Shown piece by piece: positions 10,881 to 64,000 of a stretch of 64,000 nt of DNA. The stretch lies in IMG/VR virus record IMGVR_UViG_3300042881_003198, positions 1-64,000 of that record; one strand, written 5' to 3'. The DNA is from an uncultured virus (IMG/VR IMGVR_UViG_3300042881_003198). Taxonomy: Duplodnaviria; Heunggongvirae; Uroviricota; Caudoviricetes. Position 1 is the first letter of the stretch; every line of letters begins with the position of its first letter. The notes under the pieces are model-generated. The model did no database searches. It was not told where the DNA came from and saw nothing but the letters and a program-made list of their open reading frames with translations. Made by a program: the position numbers and the translations under genes.

Positions 10881-11252
10881 TCAAGATAAATTATTGCGTC
10901 TTGGACGATAAGTATGTAAGTTTTTTGGAGGATCTGGTTTCATCCATTCTTCTATTTTATTAAACTTTTGCTCGTCATAAAAATATTGTTGGATGTACCA
11001 TAACTTCCAGTGTTCATGACCTTTTGATTGATTACACTCGTGGCAACAACATACTACATTTTTTGTAGTATCTTCCCCACCTTTTGATTGTGGGACAATA
11101 TGATCAATTGTAAGATTTTCATCAGACCCACAATAGGCACACTTATTATCCCAACTTTCCTTTATATGTTTTCTCCATAATCTTTTTGCTTCAGAACTTG
11201 ATGTTGTATGAAGATTAAAGACATATTCTTTAGGATTATGGAAGGGAACCAT
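10881..11252 (-). CDS. HNH endonuclease
   Basis: CAYCG...LTIDHIVPQSKGG...NVVCCCHECNQSK; ATG at 11252 preferred over the track TTG start. Confidence 0.85.
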   Translation of the reverse strand: MVPFHNPKEYVFNLHTTSSSEAKRLWRKHIKESWDNKCAYCGSDENLTIDHIVPQSKGGEDTTKNVVCCCHECNQSKGHEHWKLWYIQQYFYDEQKFNKIEEWMKPDPPKNLHTYRPRRNNLS

Positions 11253-11390
11253 AAGTATTTGCAACTTATGATTATTTATTCTTTGTTCTTATAACTTCTA
11301 CTAGTTCTTTCAAAGTAATGTATATGTAATGAAACTCTTCATAATAAGTAATGTCCGAATCTCTTTTGAGAAAATGAGTTATTTTCTTTA

Positions 11391-14340: not shown

Positions 14341-14944
14341 AATGTTTTAATGTTTTTTCTGTAAGGTTGATGATTTCAGTTATGGGCAATTCTACCATAT
14401 AACACTCAGTATGTCCAGCGTCCTTGGATTCAAAATCAATTTTATAATCTTGGTATTTTTGATGAATGAACTTTTCAAGATGATGAACTTGATAATGAAT
14501 TCCTTTCCATATTTTAATTACACTATGTAATTTATTTTTTGTGTGATTTGCTAATTTGTTGAAACTTCTTCCAACCTTATAAACCAGTTTACCTTCAAGA
14601 TAAACAATAACCAAATACAAATAATCAGTATCAAAATATCTTTCTTTCCAAGGATTTTGGCAATTATTGCCCTTTATTTTTTCTCCATATTTTTTGACTC
14701 TTTCATCAGTTTCTTTGGTTAATCCTTTATTCCAAACTTTTTGACCTGTTTTCTTTCCTTTATTCCAAGGTTCTTTACCAACCTGCCATTCAGAAAAGTT
14801 TCTTGTTACACCAATTGTTTTAAGATACTTATATACGGAAACTCTTGGTATGTTTAGTTGTCTTCCAATTTCGTGGGAGGATAAACCAGACAAATACATT
14901 TGTTTCCAAATCTCCCTATCCTTATCAGTATATTTTATATTCAT
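14330..14944 (-). CDS. Putative free-standing homing endonuclease downstream of psbA (HTH, NUMOD3-like repeats, GIY-YIG-like C-terminus)
   Basis: N-terminal HTH-like segment; PWNKG/VWNKG repeats; YLYLV...YKVGRS...LE...H...GHTECY; TATAAATA at 14976-14969; ATG at 14944. Confidence 0.7.
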   Translation of the reverse strand: MNIKYTDKDREIWKQMYLSGLSSHEIGRQLNIPRVSVYKYLKTIGVTRNFSEWQVGKEPWNKGKKTGQKVWNKGLTKETDERVKKYGEKIKGNNCQNPWKERYFDTDYLYLVIVYLEGKLVYKVGRSFNKLANHTKNKLHSVIKIWKGIHYQVHHLEKFIHQKYQDYKIDFESKDAGHTECYMVELPITEIINLTEKTLKHYDY

Positions 14945-14946
14945 TT

Positions 14947-14976
14947 GTGGTCTGCTCACGGATATTATTATTTATA
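14947..14976 (-). promoter_or_regulatory. T4-type late promoter plus putative operator resembling the intron-less psbA junction
   Basis: TATAAATA on minus; plus strand GTGGTCTGCTCACGGATA vs spliced psbA GTGGCT|GCTCACGGTTA. Confidence 0.65.
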
Positions 14977-15002
14977 AAAAAGAGACCTTTACAGGTCTCT
15001 TC
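14976..15002 (-). terminator. Rho-independent terminator after psbA
   Basis: AGAGACC-tgtaaa-GGTCTCT followed by a T-run on minus. Confidence 0.7.
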
Positions 15003-15027: not shown

Positions 15028-16319
15028 TCAACCGATAGAAGGAGCAGTTAGAGCAACCGAAGTTGTTTCTGCTGCAGCCAAATCTAAAGGAAAATTATGT
15101 GCATTTCTCTCGTGCATAACTTCCATACCCAACCCAGATTTGTTCAATATGTCCGCCCAAGTAGGAATTACCCGGTTTTGACTATCCAGAATACTCTGAT
15201 TGAAATTTAGTCCGTTGAGGTTGAATGCCATAGTGCTTACGCCTAGAGCAGTAAACCAGATGCCCACAACGGGCCAAGCGGCGAGGAAGAAGTGAAGTGA
15301 ACGAGAATTATTGAACGAAGCATATTGGAAAATGAGTCGTCCAAAGTAACCGTGAGCCAATTGTCCAAAAGTTTCCTTAAGGGTTGGACTATATCTTCAC
15401 CTATTAAAGGTGCTGGGCGCTCTTGCCTGTTATTAAGGGAACTGTATCCCTCAGGTAGTCTCTGAACCTTTCCTAGATGTATCTAGGACTTGGATGCTGA
15501 TTGCCATATCCATAAAGGACTTAGGTTTCCAGCAGTTCACCCAGTTTAACGTGACCCGCTCTGTCAAGCCACGATGTTATAAGTCTCTTCTTCTTGACCA
15601 AACTTATAACCATAATTCTGTGACTCAGTTTCTGTGGTTTCACGAACCAGTGAAGAAGTCACAAGAGAACCGTGCATAGCACTGAACAGAGAACCACCGA
15701 ACACACCAGCAACTCCAAGCATATGGAAGGGGTGCATCAGGATGTTGTGCTCTGCCTGGAACACAAGCATGTAGTTGAATGTTCCGGAGATGCCCAGAGG
15801 CATCGCATCAGAGAATGAACCTTGTCCGAAAGGATAAACCAGGAATACAGCAGATGCAGCAGCAACAGGAGCACTGTAAGCAACCATAATCCAAGGACGC
15901 ATACCTAGACGGTATGAGAGTTCCCATTCACGTCCCATATAGCAGTAGATGCCAATGAGGAAGTGAAATACAACAAGTTGGAAAGGTCCACCGTTATAAA
16001 GCCATTCATCAAGACTTGCTGCTTCCCAGATGGGATAGAAGTGAAGACCAATGGCGTTGCTTGAAGGAACAACAGCACCAGAGATGATGTTGTTTCCGTA
16101 CATGAGTGAACCAGCAACAGGTTCACGAATACCGTCAATGTCCACCGGGGGTGCGGCAATGAAGGCGACGATGAAACAAATAGTTGCAGCAAGCAACGTT
16201 GGAATCATCAGAGTTCCGAACCAACCAACATAAAGGCGGTTGTTCGTTGAAGTAATCCATTCACAGAATGAGTTCCACGCCGAAGTAGTTGGGCGACGTG
16301 TAGCGATTGTAGCAGTCAT
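15028..16319 (-). CDS. psbA: Photosystem II D1 protein, two exons (16319..15567 and 15357..15028), 360 aa spliced
   Basis: Canonical D1 sequence; [14 protein letters not shown] restored by removing 15358..15566. Confidence 0.97.
15358..15566 (-). mobile_element. Group I self-splicing intron, 209 nt, no ORF
   Basis: 5' exon ends in U, intron ends in G; P (AACTGCTGGAAA), Q (AATCAGCA), R (GTTCAGAGACTA), S (AAGATATAGTCC); IGS GGTCACG pairs exon CGTGGCT with U.G; GAGC pairs 3' exon GCTC (P10). Confidence 0.93.
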
Positions 16320-16329
16320 TTTTCGTTAA

Positions 16330-16446
16330 AGGGTAAGTATGTGTCCAGGGGGAACTGAACGGTACAAGTATTCCCCACGACACCCTCCATCGTGGGTATG
16401 AGAGACTGTGTTTAACCTCCCCATAGGTCTCGGTTAGGCAGAGGAC
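16330..16446 (-). ncRNA. Structured psbA 5' leader, PhotoRC-II-like motif
   Basis: GAGAC...GTCTC and CCCACGAT...GTCGTGGG stems directly upstream of a phage psbA; family name from recall. Confidence 0.6.
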
Positions 16447-16484
16447 AACGTTAAGGTTTTGTTACATTCCTTAACTTGTTGTTG

Positions 16485-33961: not shown

Positions 33962-34125
33962 GGGGTCTTTAGGCTCGCCACTTATTCTTTGACTGGAAAT
34001 AAGAAACCAGGCGGGAGAGAGTCCCATCCGCACCAGTCGTCACTTATAATGCCCATACGACGAGGGCAAATCAGGGTTTGAACTTGACTCCACCACTTGG
34101 TTTTACGAAACCAAGAAAAGTTGGG
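33962..34125 (-). ncRNA. Structured RNA, manA-motif-like
   Basis: Repeated modules ending in TGGYG; H-type pseudoknots (CTGG/CCAG with CTTATT/AATAAG; TGCCC/GGGCA with TCGTC/GACGA); GGTGCGGATGGG...CCCGCC; upstream of gmd; family name from recall. Confidence 0.6.
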
Positions 34126-34898: not shown

Positions 34899-34970
34899 TC
34901 CAGAAGGTTGGGATCGAACCAACGTCTTCACCGCCCCAAACGGTGCCGTCTACCGCTGACTTACTCCTGG
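34899..34970 (-). tRNA. tRNA-Pro(TGG)
   Basis: Cloverleaf; CACCG-TTTGGGG-CGGTG; GTTCGAT T-loop. Confidence 0.85.
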
Positions 34971-35515
34971 TTATATTTTATATAGTCTTCAATTAGTGGA
35001 GATACTAACTGACGATATCTTGAATGAAACATTCTATGGTGATTTGGGCACAGAGGAATTAAATTATTTGGGTTATTATTTTCCTTGTTACAGTCCATAT
35101 GATGAACTTCAACAATGTGATCAAATCCACAAATGCAGCATTTTTTTGGATGATATTTGAAGCATATTTTTCTATATGCTTTATCACCATCAAATCCATC
35201 TTTAAAGTTTGGATTATTTTCCCCGCTTCTAAAATGTGTATTAGAGCAGGCACGAGAACAAACTGTTTTTTCTCTTTTGTTACCCTTTGATGCTGTAAAT
35301 ATTTTACCACAAACAGGGCATTTTTTTTCAATTAATTCATATTTTCTTGGAGTTTCATACTTTGGTATTTCTACATCATATTGCAAAGCAATTTTTTTAA
35401 GATAAGCACGAGTTGCTCCATTTTCACACAAACCTAACTTTTTTAAAACTTGTGCTGGACCATTTGATCCTACACAAGCACTCAAAAGTTGTTCTTTAGT
35501 GGTATGCCTTTTCAT
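34961..35515 (-). CDS. HNH endonuclease, stop codon inside tRNA-Pro
   Basis: CPVCG...CSRAC, SGENNPN, CCICG...EVHHMD...N...LCPNHH; TATAAATA at 35549-35542. Confidence 0.85.
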   Translation of the reverse strand: MKRHTTKEQLLSACVGSNGPAQVLKKLGLCENGATRAYLKKIALQYDVEIPKYETPRKYELIEKKCPVCGKIFTASKGNKREKTVCSRACSNTHFRSGENNPNFKDGFDGDKAYRKICFKYHPKKCCICGFDHIVEVHHMDCNKENNNPNNLIPLCPNHHRMFHSRYRQLVSPLIEDYIKYNQE

Positions 35516-35583
35516 AAAAGATAAAAACCTTTTCTTATAACTATTTATAAAAGTAATAAGTTTCGGGATTATCTCAAAACAAG

Positions 35584-35706
35584 TTACTTACCATTTTGTT
35601 TGTGTATAAGCATTATACCCATAATCGGGGCAACTGTCAATCCTGCCCCACAAAGACCCAACCAAACTGGACTTTGTGCCAGATATTCCACAATGTGAAA
35701 AATCAT
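35584..35706 (-). CDS. Small membrane peptide (40 aa)
   Basis: MIFHIVEYLAQSPVWLGLCGAGLTVAPIMGIMLIHKQNGK read by hand; GAGG upstream. Confidence 0.45.
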   Translation of the reverse strand: MIFHIVEYLAQSPVWLGLCGAGLTVAPIMGIMLIHKQNGK

Positions 35707-35888
35707 ATTCCTCTCCAATTCTTATATTCATAATGGAAGTATTGATCTACAATATCGCCTAATGGAGCATCTACCCCCCATTCAGACCATTCCCTACAAA
35801 ACTGTTTGATGTGATTATCATTCAAGACATGTCTGCCATAAGACCTTACAAAGCAAGTCATAGCGAAACTATATCTTTGCTTATCCAT
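35703..35888 (-). CDS. Hypothetical protein
   Basis: ORF track; resembles 11815..12021. Confidence 0.55.
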   Translation of the reverse strand: MDKQRYSFAMTCFVRSYGRHVLNDNHIKQFCREWSEWGVDAPLGDIVDQYFHYEYKNWRGI

Positions 35889-35959
35889 ATGCGTGCGTAA
35901 GACTCCACTGAATGAAGAATGAAATTAATCCGAGAAGAATAACAGCAACTATAAGTGTG

Positions 35960-36112
35960 TTAGTCATTCTTATCTCCAAGATACTTTGCGAGAGGATCTT
36001 TTTTGGTTTTGACTATTTCACACGCTCTTCGGTAAAATGTATTGTCAGTATTACCAGAGTTTTCAAAGGTTGCTTTAATTTTCACCCAATTTTGGTAAGT
36101 GTGATCATCCAT
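35960..36112 (-). CDS. Hypothetical protein
   Basis: Likely start MDDHTYQNWVKIK. Confidence 0.5.
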   Translation of the reverse strand: MDDHTYQNWVKIKATFENSGNTDNTFYRRACEIVKTKKDPLAKYLGDKND

Positions 36113-36226
36113 TGGGAATTTAGTTTGATACTTACTAGTTATCTTAGTAAGTATTTTGCAAATGTCAACTATGTGTTGATACAAAAATATAGATTAAAAA
36201 AATCTAAAATTTTGTAGCATTTGTAA

Positions 36227-36309
36227 CGGAGAGAACAGGAATCGAACCTGCGAAGCTTTTAAACCCAGCCGCTTTCAAGGCGGTGTCCTCGACCAACCGG
36301 ACTCTCTCC
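36227..36309 (-). tRNA. tRNA-Ser(TGA), shortened acceptor/D-arm junction
   Basis: CCGC-CTTGAAA-GCGG anticodon arm, long variable arm, GTTCGAT. Confidence 0.85.
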
Positions 36310-36319
36310 AAATAAGTCC

Positions 36320-36580
36320 TTATCGGACTTCAAAATCTAAGCGTCTTACTTTACGCCGACGCCTTGCTTCTTGAAAGGCAAGGTCTTCATTAGTAAGAAC
36401 ATTAGATTTCTCTTTGGTACTCATATAGTTTATTATGACAACCTTTGATAAGTCAAGTGCCGCAATATTTTCATTATTACGAACAGTTGCCATATTAGGG
36501 CATCCACACGCAACTGTTTTTCCAGACTTTCCTTCTATCTCACTTCCGCAAGATTTACATCTAATTTTTAAATTTTCCAT
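36320..36580 (-). CDS. Hypothetical protein with Cys motifs
   Basis: CKSC...CGCPN. Confidence 0.6.
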   Translation of the reverse strand: MENLKIRCKSCGSEIEGKSGKTVACGCPNMATVRNNENIAALDLSKVVIINYMSTKEKSNVLTNEDLAFQEARRRRKVRRLDFEVR

Positions 36581-36592
36581 CTTTACAATTAA

Positions 36593-37027
36593 TTATTCAG
36601 TAAATGAACGAAGCATCCAAACGAACTTACCGTGTGCTTCATTTAAATCATCAACAAGATTAACAGTTCCTCTTGACTTTTGTGCTTCTGCTTCTTCAGC
36701 AACTTCACCTAACATATCTATAATCTTTTTATGCCCATCAAGTAAATCTTTAATCATTTCCATTTCAGAAATATTAGTTTTTGCTTCCCCAACACCAGAG
36801 ACTTCCAGAACTCTAGATAAAGAGCTGATAGGTTTAATACCCAAAAATCTCATATGTTCTGCTATACGATCAACTTCTTCTTGAATTGCTTCATATTGAT
36901 CTCCAAACAAATCATGAATTTGCTTAAAGTCTGGTCCTACAACATGCCAGTGATAGACCCAGGTTTTTTGGAATAGCAAAAAAAGTGATGCTTGAGTATC
37001 ACTTAATAATTTATAAAGTTTTTCCAT
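36593..37027 (-). CDS. dps: Dps / ferritin-like DNA-protection protein
   Basis: HWHVVGPDFKQIHDLF...VDRIAEH...KFVWMLRS. Confidence 0.9.
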   Translation of the reverse strand: MEKLYKLLSDTQASLFLLFQKTWVYHWHVVGPDFKQIHDLFGDQYEAIQEEVDRIAEHMRFLGIKPISSLSRVLEVSGVGEAKTNISEMEMIKDLLDGHKKIIDMLGEVAEEAEAQKSRGTVNLVDDLNEAHGKFVWMLRSFTE

Positions 37028-37059
37028 TACACCAATACTTTTCAAGTATTTATAATAAG

Positions 37060-37132
37060 TGCCCGATACAGGTAATGCTCCCGTCGATGTCTGAGTGTAA
37101 ATCAGGTCCCTTCACTTGCTGGGTCATCGGGC
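37060..37132 (-). tRNA. tRNA-Val(TAC), non-canonical T-loop
   Basis: Acceptor GCCCGAT/ATCGGGC; CTGA-TTTACAC-TCAG; T-arm ACGGG-AGCATTA-CCTGT. Confidence 0.7.
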
Positions 37133-37139
37133 AATAAAA

Positions 37140-37304
37140 TCAATGAGATCCTAGCATATACTCTACAGTATTGGCAATATCGCTCATAGCATCACGGAGA
37201 TTTTCTCTTTGCCCAGATTCCTGTTTACGAATTGGACGAGAACTATCGCAGAGAGTCCACCTCCAATGATTCATTTCGGAGCAGAACCACAAATTAATTT
37301 TCAT
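37140..37304 (-). CDS. Small hypothetical protein (54 aa)
   Basis: MKINLWFCSEMNHWRWTL...ESGQ...AMSDIANTVEY read by hand. Confidence 0.5.
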   Translation of the reverse strand: MKINLWFCSEMNHWRWTLCDSSRPIRKQESGQRENLRDAMSDIANTVEYMLGSH

Positions 37305-37452
37305 TCTTATAATACTCCAGTTCTATCCAATTAAGAAGTGTTTGAAATGCAGTAATAGAATTCTCGGTGCAGTTATCTTCTTTGAGTTTCTGAACGTAAT
37401 ATTCAAGTGCTTCAATAACCATTTGGCGGTCCATTTGGGATATAAGAGACAT
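37294..37452 (-). CDS. Hypothetical protein
   Basis: MSLISQMDRQMVIEALEYY; GGAGG upstream; TTGACA-17-TATAAT. Confidence 0.55.
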   Translation of the reverse strand: MSLISQMDRQMVIEALEYYVQKLKEDNCTENSITAFQTLLNWIELEYYKNEN

Positions 37453-37531
37453 AATCCTCCTGACTCGATACTTATTATACTGAAAAGGGGAGTCGTTGTC
37501 AACTCCCCAATTCACACTATGTATTCAAATA

Positions 37532-38416
37532 TCAGAACTTGAAACCAAGACCAGTAGTGAAGACTGGTGAGTAAGTTCCATTGGTAGCACCGTAACTGTT
37601 AGCAGAATTGGTGGTAGGGAACTTCAGGTCAGCAAAACCAACGAGTGAATTGCTGATACGACCTTCGACTCCAAGAGCAAGAACAAATTGACCACGATTG
37701 CCGACAGCAGACTGATAGTTAGCAGCAGTTTCATTCACGAAAGGAATCTGATAACCAGCACCAGCATACACATTGGCACGACTCACACCACTCTTGGCAC
37801 GGGAAATACTCCAATCATAGGAAACCAGAGCACCACCACCAGCACCGATTTGACCAGCAGGACTACCAACAAGGTTGGCATAGGGGCGGACCGAAACAGC
37901 ATTCAGATTAGTGAAGTTCTTCACGGCATATCGTGCTTGAATCGTGGCACCAGAAACAGTACGCTGAGCACTGTAACCATTGCCAGCAACACCTTGCTGA
38001 TCGAGAAGCACACCAACACCTAGATAGTTACCAACTCCTTGTGCCTTTTGAGCAGCAGCAACCTCAAGAGCACTCACACGAGTATTGGTTGCAGCAATCT
38101 CTTTAGAGAATTCAGCACGCAGGGCAGCGGCAAGAGCAGCATCAGCAGCGGTTTGATACTCACTAATGCGGTCAAGGCAGGCATTCGTCAGAGCAGCAAG
38201 TTCAGCACGAGTAGCAGGTTGACCGGGACGGAAAGTGCCATCAGGATAACCAGCAACACAACCGTAACGCTCTACCAGATTAGTGATTGCTTGATAAGAC
38301 CACTGGGTGGGTTGAACATCACCCAGTTGCTTAACGCTGGTGACTTGTGCCATTGCAGGAGAAGCGATAGAAGACGCAGCAACTACACCGGCAGCAATAA
38401 TATTTTGAAAAGTCAT
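37532..38416 (-). CDS. SLH-domain outer-membrane protein (cyanobacterial porin-like N-terminus plus short beta-barrel)
   Basis: Signal peptide; QVTSV.QLGDVQPTQWSYQAITNLVERYGCVAGYPDGTFR...TRAE; coiled coil; C-terminal GLGFKF. Confidence 0.8.
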   Translation of the reverse strand: MTFQNIIAAGVVAASSIASPAMAQVTSVKQLGDVQPTQWSYQAITNLVERYGCVAGYPDGTFRPGQPATRAELAALTNACLDRISEYQTAADAALAAALRAEFSKEIAATNTRVSALEVAAAQKAQGVGNYLGVGVLLDQQGVAGNGYSAQRTVSGATIQARYAVKNFTNLNAVSVRPYANLVGSPAGQIGAGGGALVSYDWSISRAKSGVSRANVYAGAGYQIPFVNETAANYQSAVGNRGQFVLALGVEGRISNSLVGFADLKFPTTNSANSYGATNGTYSPVFTTGLGFKF

Positions 38417-38474
38417 ATTGTGTTAAGATTTACAACTACAGTGTTTATTTAGAAGCTCCAGGAATTATGGAGCA

Positions 38475-38546
38475 AGCGGATTAGGGGATTCGAACCCCTG
38501 ACGAACTGCTTGGAAGGCAGCCATTCTACCACTGAATTAAATCCGC
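38475..38546 (-). tRNA. tRNA-Gly(TCC)
   Basis: GCTGC-CTTCCAA-GCAGT; canonical cloverleaf. Confidence 0.92.
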
Positions 38547-38624
38547 AATGTGGGAGATTTGACTCTCCCGGCACTTGCCTTCACACGGACATATGAAGTA
38601 TATGACATAATGAGTATTATGTCA

Positions 38625-38695
38625 AGCCCCATAACAGAATTGAACTGTTCTCTGCAGTTTACAAAACTGCTGCATCACCACAATGCTTATAGGGC
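38625..38695 (-). tRNA. tRNA-Thr(TGT)
   Basis: GCAGT-TTTGTAA-ACTGC; A at position 8. Confidence 0.8.
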
Positions 38696-38696
38696 A

Positions 38697-38850
38697 ACAC
38701 GGGGGTGATCAAATCCCCGACCTAAGAAAACTTAGGATTTAGTAAGGTTTCCAGTAGCCGTTCTTATCTCCCATAAGGAAGATGTAGGTATCGAACCTAC
38801 AAAGGACAGTCCCTAACGGAACTTCTGGGAGTTCCACCCAGAACCGACTT
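38697..38850 (-). ncRNA. Unassigned structured RNA with pseudoknots and a T-loop hairpin
   Basis: TTCTGGG/CCCAGAA with GGAAC/GTTCC; GTAGG-TTCGATA-CCTAC; CCTAAG/CTTAGG; CGGGG/CCCCG. Confidence 0.6.
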
Positions 38851-38862
38851 ATATATGTTACA

Positions 38863-39423
38863 TTATTTTGACGTAGTTGTCAATAGTCCTCGTCGCTGTA
38901 ATCTTTTTTTAATAGAATTTCCATTTACACCAAAAACTCTACCAGTATGAGAATAACCATAACTTTTAACCATTTCTAAAAGTTCTTCATCACTTGGATA
39001 GTTTGCCTTTTCTCTAACCTTTTTAGCACATTTATCAGAGCAATATTTCTGCCTAATAGACATTTCAGAATTACATACTGGACAAGGAATCATTTTTTTA
39101 GTAAACTCACTTTTCCAAATAGTATATTCCTCATCAAATCTTACCACATCATCTGGAATACTGGTAATATCATTATGAACTTCTCTGTGACAGTTAGCAC
39201 AAAGACAAACACATTTTTTGAGTTCATCAGAAACTTTACTCCAAGCACGAGTTACTCCTTTTGAAGATAAACCAAAATCTTTTTCATCAGGATTTAAGTG
39301 ATGAAACTCTAATGCCCCGATACATTTATTATATCCACATATTCCACATTTTTCTTTAAATGCTTTTAAAGCATATTCTTTTGCTCTTCTTCTATAATCA
39401 GAAACTGCTTTTTTATTAGACAT
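38863..39423 (-). CDS. HNH endonuclease within the tRNA cluster
   Basis: CGICGY...ALEFHH...LCANCHREVH; CPVC...CSDKC; C-terminal HTH-like segment. Confidence 0.85.
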   Translation of the reverse strand: MSNKKAVSDYRRRAKEYALKAFKEKCGICGYNKCIGALEFHHLNPDEKDFGLSSKGVTRAWSKVSDELKKCVCLCANCHREVHNDITSIPDDVVRFDEEYTIWKSEFTKKMIPCPVCNSEMSIRQKYCSDKCAKKVREKANYPSDEELLEMVKSYGYSHTGRVFGVNGNSIKKRLQRRGLLTTTSK

Positions 39424-39477
39424 ACCCTACAAATATTTTATTACTATTTATAATAATAGCATATTTCAAGGGTAAAA

Positions 39478-39549
39478 CTCCGAGTGTCAGAATCGAACTG
39501 ACCTATAACAAATTAACAGTTTGCTCCCGCACCTTGCGGGCTACTCGGA
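39478..39549 (-). tRNA. tRNA-Asn(GTT)
   Basis: GCAAA-CTGTTAA-TTTGT; atypical D-arm. Confidence 0.85.
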
Positions 39550-39551
39550 AT

Positions 39552-39603
39552 GATGGCATAAGTGTGATATACCTCATAAGGATATAACAGGGACTTACGC
39601 TCT
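39552..39603 (-). repeat. 52-nt hairpin element, copy 1
   Basis: Near-identical to 39711..39762 with compensatory changes. Confidence 0.8.
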
Positions 39604-39635
39604 ATCACTTTTATATATGGAGAATAAATCTCCAA

Positions 39636-39708
39636 TGGAGAATAGGAGACTCGAACTCCTGACACCCGCCTTGCAAAGGCGATACTCTACCAACTGAGTT
39701 AATTCCCC
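39636..39708 (-). tRNA. tRNA-Ala(TGC)
   Basis: G3.U70 pair; TCGCC-TTTGCAA-GGCGG. Confidence 0.93.
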
Positions 39709-39710
39709 AA

Positions 39711-39762
39711 GATGGGTTAAGTGTAATATATCTCATAAGGACATAACAGGGACTTAACCTCC
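39711..39762 (-). repeat. 52-nt hairpin element, copy 2
   Basis: See 39552..39603. Confidence 0.8.
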
Positions 39763-39802
39763 AACAATTTATATAGTAACAAACTTTAAGAAGTTTGTCA
39801 AG

Positions 39803-39876
39803 CGTCCTCTGTAGGATTTGAACCTACGACACATCGGTTCGTAGCCGATTGCTCTATTCCACTGAGCTAAGAGGAC
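39803..39876 (-). tRNA. tRNA-Arg(ACG)
   Basis: ATCGG-CTACGAA-CCGAT. Confidence 0.93.
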
Positions 39877-39879
39877 AAA

Positions 39880-39951
39880 TTCTGAGGGTAGGATTCGAAC
39901 CCACGAATGGCGGGACCAAAACCCGCTGCCTTACCACTTGGCGACCTCAGA
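39880..39951 (-). tRNA. tRNA-Gln(TTG)
   Basis: GCGGG-TTTTGGT-CCCGC. Confidence 0.92.
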
Positions 39952-39952
39952 A

Positions 39953-40026
39953 TGGGGTGCCGTGAGGGAATCGAACCCTCATACAGAGAACCACAATCTC
40001 CTGTCTTACCATTAGACTAACGACAC
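39953..40026 (-). tRNA. tRNA-His(GTG), CCA encoded
   Basis: GGAGA-TTGTGGT-TCTCT; C73. Confidence 0.9.
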
Positions 40027-40027
40027 A

Positions 40028-40099
40028 TAGCAGTAGGTAGATTTGAACTACCGACCATAGGCGTATGAAACCCGTACTCTACCACTGAGCTATACTGCT
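40028..40099 (-). tRNA. tRNA with CAT anticodon (Met; Ile2 not excluded)
   Basis: Loop TTCATAC; weak anticodon stem. Confidence 0.8.
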
Positions 40100-40103
40100 G
40101 AGG

Positions 40104-40193
40104 CGGAAGTGGTTGGATTTGAACCAACGGATGCCTCTTAAAGACATCGGCGGTTTAGCAAACCGCTGCATTAAGCCACTCTGCCACACTTCC
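40104..40193 (-). tRNA. tRNA-Ser(GCT)
   Basis: GCGGT-TTGCTAA-ACCGC; long variable arm. Confidence 0.93.
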
Positions 40194-40195
40194 AA

Positions 40196-40268
40196 TGGAA
40201 ACAACTGGACTCGAACCAGTGGTCTTTCGATTATCAGTCGAATGCTTTACCAACTAAGCTATGTTTCC
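40196..40268 (-). tRNA. tRNA-Ile(GAT)
   Basis: TTCGA-CTGATAA-TCGAA. Confidence 0.93.
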
Positions 40269-40272
40269 ATAG

Positions 40273-40344
40273 TATTCCTAACGGGATTCGAACCCGTGCT
40301 GCCACCTTGAAAGGGTAGTGACCTAACCGCTAGTCGATAGGAAC
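40273..40344 (-). tRNA. tRNA-Glu(TTC)
   Basis: CTACC-CTTTCAA-GGTGG. Confidence 0.92.
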
Positions 40345-40392
40345 TTGATGCTACAACCGCCAAGGAGGAACACTCCATAGGCAGAGTAGCAA

Positions 40393-40466
40393 CGACCCAT
40401 ACGGGATTTGAACCCGTGATCTCCACCGTGACAGGGTGGCGTGATAGACCGCTACACTAATGGGTC
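40393..40466 (-). tRNA. tRNA-Asp(GTC)
   Basis: CCACC-CTGTCAC-GGTGG. Confidence 0.93.
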
Positions 40467-40470
40467 AAGG

Positions 40471-40552
40471 TGGGAGGAGCAGGATTCGAACCTGCGAAGG
40501 CAGAGCCGTCTGATTTACAGTCAGATTCCTTTAGCCACTCGGAAATCCTCCC
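40471..40552 (-). tRNA. tRNA-Tyr(GTA)
   Basis: TCTGA-CTGTAAA-TCAGA; long variable arm. Confidence 0.93.
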
Positions 40553-40556
40553 ACGA

Positions 40557-40629
40557 TGGGTCTGGTCGGGATCGAACCGACGACTTACAGGTTAAAAGCC
40601 CGCTACTCTACCAACTGAGTTACAGACCC
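40557..40629 (-). tRNA. tRNA-Lys(TTT)
   Basis: GCGGG-CTTTTAA-CCTGT. Confidence 0.93.
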
Positions 40630-40749
40630 ATATAATGTGGAAAATATTCGGTTGTCGATGTGCTGGTGGTCTCTCAACCACCCTTTAAGAATATCACCGT
40701 TTGGTCTCTGGGGGGAGATTGGTGGACACTTAGGAAACTGTCACAGGCA

Positions 40750-40790
40750 ATAAAAAAGGGGAGAAAACTTTTGGTTTCTCTCCCCTTTCT
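40750..40790 (-). terminator. Rho-independent terminator
   Basis: AAAGGGGAGAGAAAC...GTTTTCTCCCCTTTTTT. Confidence 0.7.
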
Positions 40791-40811
40791 TTTGCTTTTA
40801 TGGATTACATC

Positions 40812-40910
40812 TTACATATGTTTTTCCATATTCGCAAACAGGGGAGTACCCTCGATATGCCAATAGCGGCAATCGCTGGTAATAATCTGTTTGTTCATTT
40901 GGAAAGACAT
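40812..40910 (-). CDS. 32-aa hypothetical peptide
   Basis: MSFQMNKQIITSDCRYWHIEGTPLFANMEKHM between TATAAATA (~40939) and a terminator. Confidence 0.4.
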   Translation of the reverse strand: MSFQMNKQIITSDCRYWHIEGTPLFANMEKHM

Positions 40911-40964
40911 TGTTTTCGACCTAAGTGTGTTTATTTATACAAGTAATATAGCATTATTCGAAAG

Positions 40965-41037
40965 CGTCCCGTGTAGGATTCGCACCCACGACCGATTCTT
41001 TAGAAGAGAATTGCTCTGTCTCCTGAGCTAACGGGAC
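40965..41037 (-). tRNA. tRNA-Arg(TCT), T-loop TGCGAAT
   Basis: ATTCT-CTTCTAA-AGAAT. Confidence 0.85.
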
Positions 41038-41150
41038 ATAAGGAACCTCCCTGTTTGTGCATCGTTGAGAGGCATGGGAGGTGTGGGATTTATAAGAAGT
41101 TTGGACCTCCTTCACCCGTGATACCACTATAAGGCATCAGGGCACTAAAG

Positions 41151-58585: not shown

Positions 58586-58665
58586 TGCCCAAGAGAGGAC
58601 TCGAACCTCCACGCCGAAGCACATGATCCTAAGTCATGCGTGTATACCAATTTCACCACTTGGGC
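58586..58665 (-). tRNA. tRNA-Leu(TAG)
   Basis: CATGA-CTTAGGA-TCATG; variable arm; GTTCGAG. Confidence 0.93.
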
Positions 58666-59416: not shown

Positions 59417-59826
59417 CAGATGTCTCCCTCTTCACGATTTTCACTATAATATACATCAAAGAATCCGTCTGGATAACGCTTCATCAGTTTATCAATATTG
59501 GTCTGAATTACTTCATCAAAAGAGACATCAAGAGCAATACACGCTTGTGCCACATACCACATAGTATCTCCAAGTTCTTTAATCAGGTGAGTACGAGTCT
59601 CATCATTCCAACTTTTCCCCTGAAAGATAAGTTTTTTTACTATTTCCAGAAATTCCCCACCTTCGGCATTAATACCCACACCAGCAGTCAAAAGTCGTTC
59701 AATATTAGCACCTTTCTCATCCAACTGAACCATACGGTCAGACAGAGCAAGAAAATCTTTAGATGCATCAGAAGTTACGGCATCTACAAAGTTTTGATAT
59801 TTATCAAAGTCAACTCGTTGTGTCAT
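59416..59826 (-). CDS. mazG: MazG-like nucleotide pyrophosphohydrolase
   Basis: AEGGEFLEIVKK...KELGDTMWY...NIDKL..RYP. Confidence 0.9.
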   Translation of the reverse strand: MTQRVDFDKYQNFVDAVTSDASKDFLALSDRMVQLDEKGANIERLLTAGVGINAEGGEFLEIVKKLIFQGKSWNDETRTHLIKELGDTMWYVAQACIALDVSFDEVIQTNIDKLMKRYPDGFFDVYYSENREEGDI

Positions 59827-60995
59827 GAAAACTTAAATCCCTCAAATGATTTTTTTGGTTTATTTTCTTCATAATTATACTCCTCTTCCTGCCCACTGTC
59901 AAGTATGTCTTTTTGGGCAGACTGTTCACAATCATAAAGACGCATTTTAGCACGGTCAATACCAACAACAAAACGCTTAAAGATTGTTGGATCATTATAT
60001 CTATTTTTAAGTTGCTTGACCATAATCTGCCCCAGACCTTCAAGTTCCTCCGTGCTAATCAAAGCAAACATAAGGTCGGCAGTAGCAGGAAGACCAAAGG
60101 ATTCTGAAGTATCGGTCAATTCAACATCAGAAGAACCAAAACCGCTTCTTGTCGTTTGTGTGGCACTCACAATTGGCACATTAAACTCAACTGCCAAACC
60201 ACGAAGTTCTTCGGCAATAGACTTAACCAAAGTATAAGAATTAATATTACTACCACTCTTAAATCGTGACGAAGAACAAATATTCAGATAGTCAATAAAG
60301 ATAATATCAGGTCGGAATGATTTCTTAAGAGCAAGTTCATTTAGAAGTGCCTTAAAATGCCCCGAGTGTGCCGAAGCAGTAGGATACTCTTTAATTACTA
60401 AAGTACCTTGAGTCTTCTTCGCAATACCGGTTACTTTCTTCTCAAATGCCGAACGTGGCAAATCAACCAATTGCTGAATCGGAACATTGAGAAGGTTTGC
60501 ATCAATTCTTTCTGCAATTCTTTCTTCCGCCATTTCAAGAGTGATGTAGAGCACGTTCCTACCCTGTAGCAACGCGGCACTAGCAACGTGGCACATGAAC
60601 AGAGATTTTCCAACGCCAGTATTATGGGAGGAAACCCCATTAGTATAATACCTATGATTTGGATGATTTACATTAATATCCACAATAGGTATTTGATTAT
60701 TAGTTTTAATAATCTTACCAATTCTAATACCATCACTAGTAATAAATTCATAATATGAATTAGATTGCTCTATTTCTTTAGCAGAAATCCATCCGTCAGT
60801 AGTTTCAAATAAATGACTTTCGTTACATTTTACTTTAGTATTATCTAACAAATATAACTTATATTCTTCGTACATTCCTTTATTAATAAAAAAATTAACA
60901 GGAACATATCCATCGGGAGAATCGACCTCCACTTCATATCCATTATCAAGTAATGTTTTGATTTCAGCAATTGATGTTTCTTTTTCAATCCACAT
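59823..60995 (-). CDS. gp41 replicative helicase, C-terminal gene: 125-aa C-intein plus C-extein
   Basis: MWIEKE...CNESHLF...VDINV...YYTNGVSSHN|TGVGKSLFMC...FIDYLN...SATQTTR. Confidence 0.92.
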   Translation of the reverse strand: MWIEKETSIAEIKTLLDNGYEVEVDSPDGYVPVNFFINKGMYEEYKLYLLDNTKVKCNESHLFETTDGWISAKEIEQSNSYYEFITSDGIRIGKIIKTNNQIPIVDINVNHPNHRYYTNGVSSHNTGVGKSLFMCHVASAALLQGRNVLYITLEMAEERIAERIDANLLNVPIQQLVDLPRSAFEKKVTGIAKKTQGTLVIKEYPTASAHSGHFKALLNELALKKSFRPDIIFIDYLNICSSSRFKSGSNINSYTLVKSIAEELRGLAVEFNVPIVSATQTTRSGFGSSDVELTDTSESFGLPATADLMFALISTEELEGLGQIMVKQLKNRYNDPTIFKRFVVGIDRAKMRLYDCEQSAQKDILDSGQEEEYNYEENKPKKSFEGFKFS

Positions 60996-60999: not shown

Positions 61000-61028
61000 T
61001 ATAAATAGTAGTAGCAGGGACAGGGGAA
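61000..61028 (+). promoter_or_regulatory. Late promoter plus putative operator resembling the gp41 intein-less junction
   Basis: TATAAATA at 61000; GCAGGGACAGGGG reads as codons A-G-T-G. Confidence 0.5.
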
Positions 61029-61697
61029 ATGTTTAGTCAAATCTATTATAATCTATGCGAAAGCAATAGGTCAAGAAAAGACAATTATAAAAAATATTCT
61101 GGGTTACACGAACACCATATTACTCCAAAACATATGGGGGGAGATGATAGTGAAGAAAATCTCACTTATTTAAGTGTAAGAGAACATATCATAGCACATT
61201 ATTTGCTTTGGAAAATTTATAAAAATCCAAATGATTTAAGGTCTATGAAAATGTTGGGGGCAAATATAACACCCCAACACAGAAAAATAATAGGAGAATT
61301 TTGTAGAGATAATCAAATTGGGTTCTTCTCAATCCCAGTAGAAGAAAGAAAAGATTGGAGACTAAAAGGAATAGAAATACAAAAACAAGAATATCTAATC
61401 AATAATACTAAAAATTTCTATTATTGGAGCACAGAAGAAGGCAGAAAGGAAAGAGCATCAATTGGAGGAAAACAAAGAGCATCCACAGAATTCAATTATT
61501 GGGCATCTAATGAAGGAAGAAAAACACGAGCATCATTAGGGGGAAAAGCACATAAAGGCAAAAAGGTAATGCATTTACCGGGAACAAAGGGATGGAAAAG
61601 AGTATCCCCAGAAGAAGTTGATATAAAACTAAATGAAGGTTGGAAGTTTGGAACTGGAGAACCAGCACCAAATTCCAAAATCAAGAAATCTTCCTAA
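61029..61697 (+). CDS. HNH homing endonuclease between the gp41 halves, antisense
   Basis: HEHHITPKHMGGDDSEENLTYLSVREHIIAH; RASIGGK repeats; EGWKFG. Confidence 0.9.
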   Translation: MFSQIYYNLCESNRSRKDNYKKYSGLHEHHITPKHMGGDDSEENLTYLSVREHIIAHYLLWKIYKNPNDLRSMKMLGANITPQHRKIIGEFCRDNQIGFFSIPVEERKDWRLKGIEIQKQEYLINNTKNFYYWSTEEGRKERASIGGKQRASTEFNYWASNEGRKTRASLGGKAHKGKKVMHLPGTKGWKRVSPEEVDIKLNEGWKFGTGEPAPNSKIKKSS

Positions 61698-62313
61698 ATC
61701 TAATTTTAACTCTAGTTTCTGGATGAACGCAACCAGCGAGAGCAATATTGAGAGTCTTGTTAGGTAAACCACCTTTAGTGATTTTGTTGAAATATTCCAA
61801 ATCAAATTCGATTTTATCTTCTTTACGGTGATAAAATTCATAACGTTCCTCATAATTTTGAAGATAATCGTGACCAATATTATTATCAAAAGATACTGCT
61901 AGGGCATCCGAAAGAATACTTGGAATGGCATCACGATTCTTCTTTTCATCCTTTCCATCAGCAATATGAATGGATTCCATAAGTGCCAGATAAATTGCTC
62001 TGTCACGACACCACTTTTCGGTAGTATCAAGAATCCACTGTTTATCAACTGGAGCATCATTAAGTTTGGAAAGTAATTCTGAGATTTCCTTATTTTCAGA
62101 TTCGGTTAAATCTCTACGATTATCAATCTCAATATTAAGTGCTTCTATGGTAATTGAAGACCCGTACTTAACAATAAACTCAACAATTTCCTCAAAGACT
62201 ATTTTTTCTGTTCTTTGTTCATAGTATTCTGGTTGAATAAATGGAATGACCTTTCTGGCATAATCTTCATTGAATATTAAGTTTCTAAGAATTGTAAGTT
62301 CAAGTCGTTCCAT
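61681..62313 (-). CDS. gp41 replicative helicase, N-terminal gene: N-extein plus 16-aa N-intein
   Basis: ...ITKGGLPNKTLNIALAG|CVHPETRVKIRFRKIS*. Confidence 0.92.
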   Translation of the reverse strand: MERLELTILRNLIFNEDYARKVIPFIQPEYYEQRTEKIVFEEIVEFIVKYGSSITIEALNIEIDNRRDLTESENKEISELLSKLNDAPVDKQWILDTTEKWCRDRAIYLALMESIHIADGKDEKKNRDAIPSILSDALAVSFDNNIGHDYLQNYEERYEFYHRKEDKIEFDLEYFNKITKGGLPNKTLNIALAGCVHPETRVKIRFRKIS

Positions 62314-62321: not shown

Positions 62322-62867
62322 TTAAAGATTACGTTTATGATGCGGAACGTCAAATACAAAAGTAATTCTAACGTTGTCGCCAATATTGACTGCCTTATGA
62401 GGCAGTTTATTATTAAACCAAAAAAGAGTTCCAGGTTCAACGATTATAGTCTCATCTCCAACAGTATACTCGTATTTTCCCTGAATGGAAAGATGATATC
62501 TATCTTTTGTAAGATAGTAAGTTCCTTCGTCAATATGAGAACCAACTATTTCACCAACCGGAAGAGCAAGGAATCCACAACGACGAAGTTTCTTAAAATA
62601 TTTTCCCAAGTAATTAAGAATCTCCGTGTGTTTTTCATATGCCGGAGTTTTAATGCATATCTCAGTATTCCCCACATATTGGTCTTCTTTTTCAACTCCA
62701 CCCATTATGAGTTGTAGAACATCTACAGTAACGGTATACTCTGTAGGGTCCAGTTGCTCGGAGTCTTCAATATTTTTTTGAGATCCCCAGTCTTCTGGAT
62801 GTTCTTTAAGTTGCTCTAGTATTTTAGATACATCAATACCAGTTTTTATAATGCGTATGTTTTTCAT
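62322..62867 (-). CDS. Asp/Asn beta-hydroxylase-like 2OG-Fe(II) oxygenase
   Basis: HIDEG...RYHL...WFNNKLPH...N...RITFVFD. Confidence 0.8.
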
Positions 62868-63334
62868 ACGCCATAGGAAAATTCACCCTTAGCAATCACA
62901 TCAAGTTTTTCCATTACCTCTTCAGTGAAGTATTTCTCTGGGTTCTTGAGAATTTCCTTGGCATAAATTTTCTTACCATCAATTTCATATCGCCCCGCTA
63001 CATTCTTCCACATTTCGCCCAATTCCCCAAGCTCAAGAAGACCATAGTAACGATCAAGACCACGCTCGTCATAATAAAGACGAACTTCAACTTCTTGATT
63101 TTCCTTACTTAAACGTGATTTATGAGTCTTTGCCTTAATAATATTTCCGATGACTTCTGTCCCTTCTTTTTCTTTCTTTTTGCTGAGATAGATGATTGTA
63201 GAAGCAGCATACTTAAGACCAGAGTTGTGGGAGACAATACCTCCATGAAGTATGTAATGATGTTCCCCCTCCACAGTAATGTCATATACTTCTTCTGTTT
63301 CAACTTTTTTGATAGACTTTACAATTCGTTCCAT
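62864..63334 (-). CDS. uvsX: UvsX recombinase, C-terminal gene: 37-aa C-intein plus C-extein
   Basis: [11 protein letters not shown]...[38 protein letters not shown]...KSRLSKEN...GLDRYYGL. Confidence 0.9.
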
Positions 63335-63968
63335 GCCACCTCTTATACATTGGGTATGTTATTTGTTTCTGACAGTGCTCACAGACAACCTGCCTGTGTT
63401 TTTTTCCATAACGAGGAGACTTCTCTCCTTTTCTTTCAGATGCCAGTTCCGAAAGAATTTTTTTTGTTTGTTCTGAGTGCGTTTTGTTGAAGAATGGATT
63501 AGACTCTCCACTCATCCTTTCACTCATCATTTTTCTATGTTCTGGAGAAGAAACAGTTTGTCTATGTTTTTCACGAACAACAGGATTAAACATTGGATTA
63601 TTTTGTCCATAATGCCCTCTTCCATAGAAAGGATTATTCTCACCTGAAGTTAAATGAGAATAACTTCTCCTTATTCTATCATAAGAATTTAGATTCTTAC
63701 ACCTAACTCCATTACCATTAATAGAACACATACGATAAAAAGCATAACACATTTTTTTCTTATACTCACCCTCAACCATCTTTAATAATAAATGATGACA
63801 GATGAAATGTTCTCTTGGAGTTAAATTTACTAAATTATCTTTTGTATTTTTACCTCCAAATGATTTGGGAATGATGTGGTGCCTTTCTGTAATGCCATTG
63901 ATTTCTCTTTCCTTTGCTCTTTCTATAATACGAAAGTAGCAACTTGTATATTTGTTTATTATAAACAT
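63300..63968 (-). CDS. HNH homing endonuclease with NUMOD3-like repeats
   Basis: [12 protein letters not shown]...[39 protein letters not shown]. Confidence 0.9.
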
Positions 63969-63970: not shown

Positions 63971-63998
63971 GGTTCTGGTCTTAAGTATTACTATTTAG
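63971..63998 (-). promoter_or_regulatory. Late-promoter-like CTAAATA plus putative operator matching the uvsX junction
   Basis: Plus strand GGTTCTGGTCTTAAGTAT reads G-S-G-L-K-Y; 15/15 inverted match to 63209..63223. Confidence 0.7.
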
Positions 63999-64000
63999 AC

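Follow-up and report, generated by a model that had tools for sequence, protein, structure and literature searches.

Leaders of three free-standing homing endonuclease genes in a freshwater cyanophage contain look-alikes of the neighbouring insertion sites and may act as operators of the I-TevI type

The DNA analysed here, referred to as the window, is the first 64 kb (64,000 nucleotides, nt) of a 76,334-nt contig, IMG/VR record IMGVR_UViG_3300042881_003198, from a T4-like cyanomyovirus, a freshwater cyanophage. Three free-standing homing endonuclease genes accompany interrupted genes in this DNA. One follows psbA, which is split by a group I intron, and the other two lie between the halves of uvsX and gp41, which are fractured by split inteins. 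The leader of each endonuclease gene carries a look-alike (mimic) of the insertion site of its neighbour in the uninterrupted form. These look-alikes exceed chance, are conserved among related loci, agree with the canonical target in preference to the allele of the phage itself, and stand in a fixed position with respect to a promoter box. The nearest isolate is S-SRM01, also a freshwater phage, with 93.9% identity across 592 nt of psbA; no phage record reached 80% coverage of a 1.4-kb query. Coordinates are given in Table 1, and loci from other sequences are cited by L numbers.

On the minus strand the order at the psbA locus is exon 1, intron, exon 2, terminator hairpin, the box TATAAATA, a 24-nt leader and a gene for a protein of 204 amino acids. 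The boundaries of the intron were set by the reading frame of the exons, and no open reading frame (ORF) is present across its 209 nt. A joint that skips these 209 nt (15357 to 15567) occurs in contigs of four of four lake metatranscriptome runs, the exon 2 side being identical to the window sequence, and intron-less relatives are a possible source of these RNA-library contigs. Intron-bearing psbA pieces are also present among the contigs of the runs. Depth gaps over the endonuclease gene in the same contigs are uninformative on expression, and transcript 5' ends are not visible in them. Read-through RNA from psbA is predicted to fold at -23.6 kcal/mol (z -4.2), which represents the terminator hairpin; the leader copy lies outside the hairpin. 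The assignment of the protein as an endonuclease is based on PHROG 681 ('endonuclease', E 3.3e-13) and on Pfam PF10544 (T5orf172; E 6.1e-4, 20.7 bits, barely above the cut-off of 20), accompanied by weak helix-turn-helix (HTH) matches. Searches of PDB sequences gave weak HTH, HNH and NUMOD3 matches only, and an AlphaFold2 model of the psbA-linked enzyme built on a 6-row alignment has a mean pLDDT (predicted local distance difference test) of 44, too poor for a check of the fold.

The plus strand at 14947-14964 reads GTGGTCTGCTCACGGATA, and the ATG of the endonuclease gene is at 14944. A first-pass annotation, made from the sequence alone, had drawn attention to this leader as a copy of the spliced psbA junction, and the coordinates and letters that it gave for leader, box and ATG were all recovered on rereading. 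The copy is inverted with respect to both psbA and the endonuclease gene. As had been described, it differs from the junction by a 1-nt insertion and one mismatch; the extra base is located 2 bases before the intron point, and the lone mismatch falls at the third (wobble) position of a Gly codon. The claim that the junction is not contiguous in this DNA is equally correct, since the group I intron lies in between. When the leader was compared with the 40-nt junction, one shuffled leader in 5000 scored as high. In a comparison with the entire spliced gene, 10 of 1000 shuffles attain the score at some position, and the best match of the real leader falls on the junction. A GTG within the copy shares the reading frame of the endonuclease gene in the window (14945-14959), in L129 (1989-2003) and in L130 (1577-1591). 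Leaders of the L013 type have an ATG in its place, which opens a 4-codon upstream ORF overlapping the endonuclease start. An upstream-ORF or N-terminal-extension reading of this GTG or ATG was considered and is retained as a caveat only, frame and stop being variable among lineages. The leader was also compared by eye with the internal guide sequence of the intron, from which it might derive, and no convincing likeness was seen.

Relatives of the psbA-linked enzyme were examined at 16 viral-contig loci and 21 metagenome loci. The metagenome loci are those left of 65 after removal of L110, of L128, which lacks the start, and of L131-L172, which match the NUMOD-like stretch only. The gene is intact at all of the loci examined, and the order of terminator, TATAAATA, copy and ATG is kept in every one. 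Three types of leader can be distinguished: TATCCGTGAGCAGAC(C/T)A(C/T) at 11 viral and 6 metagenome loci, TAACT(A/G)TG.GC..AC.A. at 5 and 13, and TAACCGTGAGCAG in L129 and L130. The corresponding leaders of the endonuclease lineages are TATCCGTGAGCAG-A-CCAC, TAACTATGAGCAG-A-CCAT and TAACCGTGAGCAG. Taken together, the three types have a consensus that equals the reverse complement of CT/GCTCACGGTTA exactly, and the distant loci L129 and L130 carry a 16-nt exact version (L129 leader against the psbA of the window, 16/16, 0 of 1000 shuffles). The L129 enzyme is 39% identical to that of the window overall and, by hand count, 68% identical over the first 75 residues, with a nuclease domain that is barely alignable. 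The conserved leader therefore accompanies the conserved DNA-binding module. An alignment of the psbA-linked enzymes separates two main lineages that differ mostly in the N-terminal HTH region (residues 1-70); their nuclease domain is almost invariant, and their leader copies differ.

The intron is present at 15 of the 16 viral loci. In L015, L118 and L129 the enzyme gene stands beside an intron-less psbA that reads GCTGCACACGGGTAT, and the leader is nevertheless canonical. Endonuclease and intron thus assort separately, the enzyme occurring without the intron in these three loci and the intron occurring without the window's enzyme in S-SRM01. The canonical psbA 14-mer was found in 43 intron-less psbA genes among the 120 matches listed, so a pool of natural targets exists. 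The insertion site of the intron-less psbA in L015 was inspected for an excess of changes, and none is clear (11/41 against 215/1083 overall); only a Val-to-Cys change stands out. The psbA of L129 differs from the canonical site at wobble positions only, so that the psbA enzyme must read some wobble bases, as the phage would otherwise cut itself. A tblastn search of 50,697 phage records returned no cyanophage relative of the enzyme, the only match being a weak one at 32% in Pseudoalteromonas phage PH357.

The psbA-linked enzyme is unrelated to F-CphI, since Pfam finds no Endo VII motif in it and finds T5orf172 instead. The intron of S-PM2 is at psbA site B (H-E-R/N-A-H), not at site A where the intron of the window lies, and F-CphI is reported to bind and cut a 60-bp duplex centred on site B, which establishes psbA as its target (PMC6083498). 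Leaders of the F-CphI family have a site look-alike of their own. At 73 loci, all 65 leaders in which the start is covered show ..ACGAAAGAAA.CACGA after TATAAATA, a pattern also written ..ACGAAAG.AA.CA.GA. The leader of L205 matches site B of the window's psbA in direct orientation at 20/21 with one deleted base (0 of 1000 shuffles), the deletion lying two bases after the intron point. The window's psbA has no intron at site B (15028-15120, around ATGCACGAGAGAAATGCAC) and uses AGA for Arg; it is predicted to be well suited as a target for enzymes of the F-CphI type encoded by co-infecting phages. The type of enzyme, its leader copy and the site of the intron therefore covary, the T5orf172 type with site A and the F-CphI type with site B. 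In the 50 nt before the ATG, the leaders of the F-CphI family are tandem repeats of a 9-10-nt unit (GCACGAAAGA), of which L213 has three, and psbA site B contains the repeated word ATGCAC. In S-SRM01 (L001, MW015081; 2650-5120) psbA is annotated in pieces with at least 3 introns, one with its own 'site-specific DNA endonuclease' ORF and the other two at sites A and B, and is followed by an F-CphI-type gene.

uvsX is divided into ..MGGG/CLVAG.. and ..VSHN/SGLKY, the layout of a fractured gene whose intein halves are predicted to splice. Its N-terminal part lies beyond the window (contig 64960-64013), with the N-extein side of the junction at contig 64301. The endonuclease between the halves matches PHROG 655 ('homing endonuclease', E 1.9e-45), and its leader reads TGA AAATA GGTTCTGGTCT AAATAGTA ATACTTAAGACCAGAACC TA ATG. 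The first-pass annotation had asserted that the psbA layout recurs here, and the match proves stronger than claimed: the copy at 63988-63971 is exact over 18 nt, of which the N-extein supplies only 3. In ten loci with enzymes 91-100% identical (L018-L027) the sequence from the promoter-like box through the ATG is invariant and, by eye, is the longest invariant run of the alignment, 31 nt. The real uvsX C-extein of these loci varies at synonymous sites while the leader copy remains constant. L028 and L029, with enzymes 73% identical, have two changes in the copy, and both are at wobble positions. Intein-free uvsX genes of five isolates contain the contiguous site, 12-16/18 identical to the copy. 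The copy also forms the 3' arm of a hairpin, the 5' arm lying at 64007-63997. Folded in read-through RNA (-22.9 kcal/mol, z -8.4), this hairpin would have 11-13 bp and stop 2 nt short of the ATG, and the promoter-like box would fall in its 5' arm and loop. In 5 of the 10 close loci the 5' arm has decayed and the 3' arm, the copy, is invariant; in L028 and L029 the opposite arm has changed as well. Relatives of the enzyme at 44% identity (L030 and L031) are located in another gene.

gp41 has the same layout (..ALAG/CVHPE.. and ..SSHN/TGVGKS, splicing predicted), except that its endonuclease gene is on the opposite strand. For the downstream half the ATG at 60995 is the likely start, and an extension to TTG at 61040 is disfavoured because spacer lengths vary in relatives. 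The recurrence asserted for gp41 holds only in a modified form. By plain local alignment the best match of the leader to the junction, 11/14 as reverse complement, is at noise level (1334 of 5000 shuffles), and this approach was therefore replaced by a scan with positions that are invariant among lineages. Sixty-nine leaders from 73 related loci were compared. In 52 of them the block after TATAAATA matches TAGCAGGGACAGGG at 13 or more of 14 positions despite varying spacers, and more distant lineages read TAACAGGAACAGGA (57% identity), TAGCCGGAACAGGA (46%) and TAGCCGGCACTGGC (40%). Across the four lineages nine positions are invariant, TA.C.GG.AC.GG, and these were defined blind to the junction. 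At least 8 of the nine are matched at exactly 1 of 2734 sites in spliced gp41, and this one spans the junction; across the contig such matches number 10 in 152,642. Mismatches between the mimics and the junction fall on 17 of 20 wobble positions and on 3 of 40 others (Fisher 3e-9, for lineages that are not fully independent). Read in the gp41 frame the blocks give (L/V)-A-G-T-G. They are not coding at present, since the frame relative to the ATG varies. The gp41 leader is thus not the plain copy of the target that had been supposed, but a codon-degenerate mimic conserved among lineages.

Eleven of the gp41 leaders do not fit this pattern. Six, in the L091-L098 group (48-52% identity), lack both the block and the T4-type promoter box found before most of the related leaders, and no direct mimic was found in them; two of the group have an 8/9 reverse-complement match beside the ATG, as judged by eye. 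The other five (L102-L106, about 2470-2500) have half the block. Behind the same promoter they carry another HNH gene (38-40% identity), and similarity to the main family breaks off within the mimic, directly behind GCAGGGA and hence at the junction point of the mimic itself.

Specificity was further assessed by comparing 31 late-promoter-like leaders with the 3 junctions (93 pairs). The cognate scores were 12.0 for psbA and 18.0 for uvsX, and the best non-cognate score was 9.5. The refuting outcome named in the first-pass annotation, equally good matches in shuffled leaders, did not arise for these two genes, and non-cognate leaders gave no such match either. The copies begin 0-7 nt past TATAAATA-type boxes at the psbA and uvsX loci and at the majority of those for gp41, the distance reaching 13 nt in some gp41 loci; the promoters are assigned by consensus. 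At least 8 endonuclease genes are present in the 76 kb of the contig. Leaders of four others (the genes at 44682, 34961, 65390 and 73177) were compared with the whole contig, the HNH gene at 10881-11264 not being included, and none contains a mimic of a neighbour; one 13/14 match lies far away on the contig. The leader of the HNH gene at 65390-66172 continues after TATAAATA as ATAG TGCGGGTT.., and an 8-nt complement, AACCCGCA, occurs upstream of the terminator hairpin at this gene, which would allow a long-range stem enclosing terminator and promoter.

Table 1. Features of the three endonuclease loci, followed by other endonuclease genes and RNA features. Positions are those of the window unless marked as contig positions.
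Feature	Position	Strand	Basis and remarks
psbA exon 1	15567..16319	-	ORF and translation; 3' end ..GTGGCT at 15567
ORF-less group I intron, 209 nt, at psbA site A (V-A/A-H-G-Y)	15358..15566	-	Rfam RF00028, 97.9 bits, E 4.5e-24
psbA exon 2 (AHGYFGRL.. through stop codon)	15028..15357	-	ORF and translation; begins GCTCACGGTTA..
psbA terminator hairpin AGAGACC..GGTCTCT, then T run; abuts promoter box	14977..15000	-	Sequence
Putative T4-type late-promoter box TATAAATA of psbA-linked endonuclease gene	14969..14976	-	Read directly; consensus-assigned
Leader copy TATCCGTGAGCAGACCAC, inverted mimic of spliced psbA junction GTGGCT/GCTCACGGTTA	14947..14964	-	17/18 identity plus one inserted base
Free-standing homing endonuclease gene, 204 amino acids	14330..14944	-	Predicted domains: N-terminal HTH, NUMOD3-like WNKG repeats and, at the C terminus, T5orf172 (GIY-YIG-like)
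Late-promoter-like box TCTAAATA (TATAAATA in L023)	63992..63999	-	Consensus-assigned
Leader copy ATACTTAAGACCAGAACC, exact inverted copy of intein-free uvsX junction GGT/TCTGGTCTTAAGTAT	63971..63988	-	18/18, 0/5000 shuffles
HNH-NUMOD3 homing endonuclease gene between halves of split-intein uvsX	63300..63968	-	NUMOD3 E 4.3e-14, HNH E 2.6e-4; PHROG 655
C-terminal intein half and uvsX C-extein (extein from 63223)	62864..63334	-	Translation; Pfam Intein_splicing weak, E 7.4e-5, below cut-off
gp41 N-extein (to 61732) and N-terminal intein half	61681..62313	-	Translation ..LNIALAG/CVHPETRV
HNH homing endonuclease gene between split-intein gp41 helicase halves	61029..61697	+	PHROG 655 E 3.9e-16; Pfam HNH E 0.0021, below cut-off
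Degenerate mimic GTA GCA GGG ACA GGG	61011..61025	+	Compared with intein-free gp41 junction CTC GCT GGT/ACT GGC (L-A-G/T-G)
Putative late-promoter box TATAAATA of gp41 endonuclease gene	61000..61007	+	Sequence, consensus-assigned
C-terminal intein half and gp41 C-extein (extein from 60620)	59823..60995	-	MWIEKE.. ..VSSHN/TGVGKS; Pfam DnaB_C E 4.1e-16
SegE-type GIY-YIG gene	44682-45137	-	Pfam E 1.6e-53
HNH gene	10881-11264	-	
Weak HNH_2 gene	34961-35515	-	
HNH gene	contig 73177-73626	-	Outside window
HNH gene	contig 65390-66172	-	Outside window; leader at 66173-66282
PhotoRC-II RNA	16360-16453	-	Immediately upstream of psbA; Rfam above gathering score
wcaG RNA	33967-34069	-	Rfam above gathering score
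abiF RNA motif	41045-41081	-	Adjoins tRNA cluster; Rfam above gathering score
17 tRNA genes	34899-41037 and 58586-58665 (-)		Rfam above gathering score

Each of the three endonuclease leaders, as the first-pass annotation maintained, carries a conserved look-alike of the neighbouring uninterrupted insertion site that is not attributable to chance, and the three enzymes do differ in architecture (HTH with NUMOD3-like repeats and T5orf172, HNH with NUMOD3, and HNH). The look-alikes are probably autorepression operators of the I-TevI type in free-standing endonucleases, a reading to which a probability of about 0.6 is assigned. The precedent in T4 is as had been stated: according to a review (PMC2988022), the I-TevI operator equals the homing site at 15 of 20 positions and overlaps the late promoter, and I-TevI binds operator and homing site equally well but cuts the operator about 100-fold less. 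The homing sites of the enzymes described here are taken from the insertion points of intron and inteins; binding, repression and protection from cutting by the mimic are what we infer. In such a mechanism the mimic would be a short piece of DNA holding the bases that the enzyme reads in intron-free psbA or in intein-free uvsX and gp41. Because the real targets are destroyed by the intron and inteins in this phage, it would be the only good binding site left. Late in infection, once enough enzyme is present, the HTH or NUMOD3 module would occupy the mimic at about +1 to +20, and the occupied mimic would block late transcription of the enzyme's own gene, giving negative feedback. Candidate DNA-binding modules are present, with HTH matches in the psbA enzyme and NUMOD3 in the uvsX enzyme. 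The mimic would remain uncut or be cut poorly because it is only a partial or distorted site, the distortions being the extra base 2 positions before the intron point in the psbA copy and the restriction to 3 N-extein bases in the uvsX copy. Homing endonucleases are reported to accept a change at any wobble position but no non-synonymous change (PMC3159444), a tolerance that the wobble-degenerate gp41 mimic fits. The expectation that cut sites could be identified from the leaders did not hold, because the copies indicate recognition sequences, not cut sites.

Several observations weigh against operators of this kind. The L013-type psbA leader taken alone is not significant (221/1000), nor are leaders of the F-CphI family when compared with their own CGT-codon alleles (644/1000 and 619/1000), and the gp41 leader does not pass plain alignment. 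In 3 of 4 lineages the GTG of the psbA copy belongs to the reading frame of the endonuclease, so that conservation of the copy could be partly coding. The L129 phage should cut itself if its enzyme ignored wobble bases. The uvsX copy doubles as one arm of a strong hairpin (z -8.4), and because both arms have changed together in L028 and L029, RNA pairing or a DNA palindrome is selected there. Leader motifs are common to endonucleases in different host genes in the study of Dassa et al. (Fig. S4; PMC2677866), which means that leaders can be conserved for target-independent reasons. The four leaders without a mimic count as weak evidence, since the targets of these endonucleases are not known. 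Finally, deletion of the I-TevI operator in T4 is reported to have no visible effect on the phage (PMC2988022), so any operator function here may be subtle. A broader proposal is held more tentatively, namely that the mimics could be a general 'address label' of endonuclease cassettes, giving the recognition sequence and the bases that are read (wobble-blind at gp41, not at psbA) and perhaps serving as a site where endonuclease ORFs enter again or are swapped in intron- or intein-bearing alleles, which are otherwise immune.

Control at the RNA level is an unlikely alternative to operators, though one with evidence of its own. The copy might be a hairpin arm that hides the start region in read-through transcripts, from which late transcripts would escape because they begin inside the hairpin; it might pair with the target mRNA; or it might be subject to a CfrI-like antisense RNA. 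The strong uvsX hairpin agrees with such control, as does the retention of a perfect 14-nt palindrome in L028 and L029 through paired changes. Of 16 fractured-gene endonucleases, 15 are preceded by a hairpin with TATAAATA (PMC2677866). In S-PM2 the F-CphI leader lies within the annotated antisense RNA CfrI, and RNA of the psbA leader would be antisense to the spliced junction, a joint that occurs in RNA-library contigs. However, no significant structure involves the psbA or gp41 copies (late transcripts z +0.5 and +0.75), and uvsX alone passes the hairpin test. Even there the 5' arm has decayed in half of the close loci with the 3' arm intact, and a hairpin gives no reason why its arm should equal the target. 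Pairing fares no better: the gp41 copy is in sense orientation to gp41 and differs at nearly all wobble bases, which would ruin it, and in L015, L118 and L129 the psbA leader would form mismatches with the psbA mRNA of the same locus. Because an intein is excised from the protein, the uvsX and gp41 junctions are never present in RNA, which disfavours an RNA role. The antisense alternative that the first-pass annotation offered for psbA loses ground for this reason and because the leader ignores its own psbA allele. A role in RNA pairing fits psbA only, and an RNA hairpin is present only at uvsX.

The remaining explanations treat the look-alike as a trace or a site of recombination, or as an accident. 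A secondary homing or swap site, a pseudo-target cleaved when the ORF re-invades intron- or intein-bearing alleles in which it has been lost and the leader retained, or when one endonuclease ORF replaces another, seems rather improbable. The break of homology at the mimic's junction point in L102-L106, ahead of a different HNH gene, is what it would produce, but a breakpoint within 1 nt of that point is expected at an estimated frequency of about 0.1 by chance in a 25-nt leader, and only a single case was seen. Invasion by endonuclease genes at sites that resemble their targets is an old idea, reportedly put forward by Loizos et al. in 1994. The endonuclease-less locus gp41-7 retains its upstream hairpin (Dassa et al., PMC2677866); against this, an allele that lacks the endonuclease and retains a psbA or uvsX leader was not seen among the fetched loci, although no dedicated search for one was made, and the phage would cut its own genome unless cleavage requires flanking sequence. 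It is very unlikely that the copies are neutral scars, functionless leftovers of illegitimate repair at or near the target when the endonuclease gene was inserted. The positions that deviate from the target vary by lineage, as expected if an originally exact copy had decayed, yet a scar would not remain 16/16 or 18/18 across lineages whose proteins are at 39-73% identity, keep codon positions 1-2 with randomised wobble in non-coding DNA, or land between promoter and ATG in four unrelated enzyme families. Signs of purifying selection on the mimic, which the comparisons give, likewise speak against a scar. Chance resemblance, selected after the fact, is close to negligible. A match of 11/14 does occur in the contig between an unrelated leader and junction (the HNH gene at 73177 and psbA), and the gp41 leader fails the plain test, but shuffle and cross-pair controls, independent lineages and four enzyme families all indicate the cognate junction.

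Autorepression through a target look-alike has its closest parallel in the I-TevI operator of the T4 td intron (Edgell et al.), where a homing-site look-alike sits at the late promoter driving the endonuclease gene. The mimics described here would likewise lack determinants of efficient cutting, and the proposed feedback would also act through the enzyme's own DNA-binding domain. Unlike the intron-encoded I-TevI, the present enzymes (T5orf172-type, HNH-NUMOD3 and HNH) are free-standing and known from sequence alone. Their mimics lie mostly between box and ATG and not over the box, the junction they mimic is interrupted in the same phage, either by an ORF-less intron or by a split intein, and one mimic is wobble-degenerate. 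The psbA locus also resembles the 'collaborative homing' of F-CphI in S-PM2, reportedly described by Zeng, Bonocora and Shub in 2009, in which a psbA with an ORF-less group I intron is followed directly by the gene of a free-standing endonuclease. In both cases the presumed target is intron-less psbA at the insertion site, and the leaders of the F-CphI family have a site look-alike as well; the differences are an Endo VII motif in F-CphI and a predicted T5orf172 domain in the window's enzyme, the position of the intron (V-A/A-H-G-Y in the window) and the inverted copy. A search by term of the F-CphI paper (PMC6083498) found no mention of a leader mimic.

uvsX and gp41 correspond to the 'fractured genes' of Dassa et al., in that each consists of two ORFs with intein halves, an endonuclease gene between them and a late-promoter box before the endonuclease, with a hairpin in addition at uvsX. 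The endonucleases of that study are GIY-YIG or Vsr-like with motifs shared across host genes, whereas those of the window are HNH enzymes with target-specific leader motifs, and the gp41 endonuclease is on the opposite strand. Dassa et al. (2009) interpret the upstream elements as translational hairpins (PMC2677866); the terms 'homing site', 'target site' and 'recognition site' are absent from the main text, which does not link the hairpins or TATAAATA to the insertion site. In having a hairpin that reaches to the start codon, with a late-promoter-like box inside, uvsX also resembles the hairpin-controlled T4-type endonucleases as these are described (Gott et al. 1988; mobE of Aeh1; PMC2988022, PMC2677866). 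The psbA and gp41 leaders have no such hairpin, and the hairpin model leaves the identity of arm and target unexplained. The antisense RNA CfrI of S-PM2, reportedly described by Millard et al. in 2010, spans, according to its annotation, the psbA 3' end, the intergenic region and the endonuclease 5' end, and thus the leader (PMC2984593), but an RNA of this type cannot account for the intein-linked cases. No account of leader mimics at the genes of free-standing or split-intein endonucleases emerged from a literature search that did not cover Zeng 2009 or Millard 2010.

The mimics bear on the regulation of free-standing homing endonucleases, a largely unknown field; for the twelve such endonucleases of T4 it was unknown according to a 2009 paper (PMC2790892). 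If the mimics are operators, feedback through a target look-alike would be a common design across unrelated enzyme families, and one that is shared by the partners of ORF-less introns and of split inteins. The likely recognition sequence of an uncharacterised endonuclease could then be read off its own leader. Recognition sequences obtained in this way would aid the choice of new site-specific nucleases and would help to explain the boundaries of gene exchange between co-infecting cyanophages. In this one freshwater cyanophage the finding links three photosynthesis and replication genes to active selfish elements.

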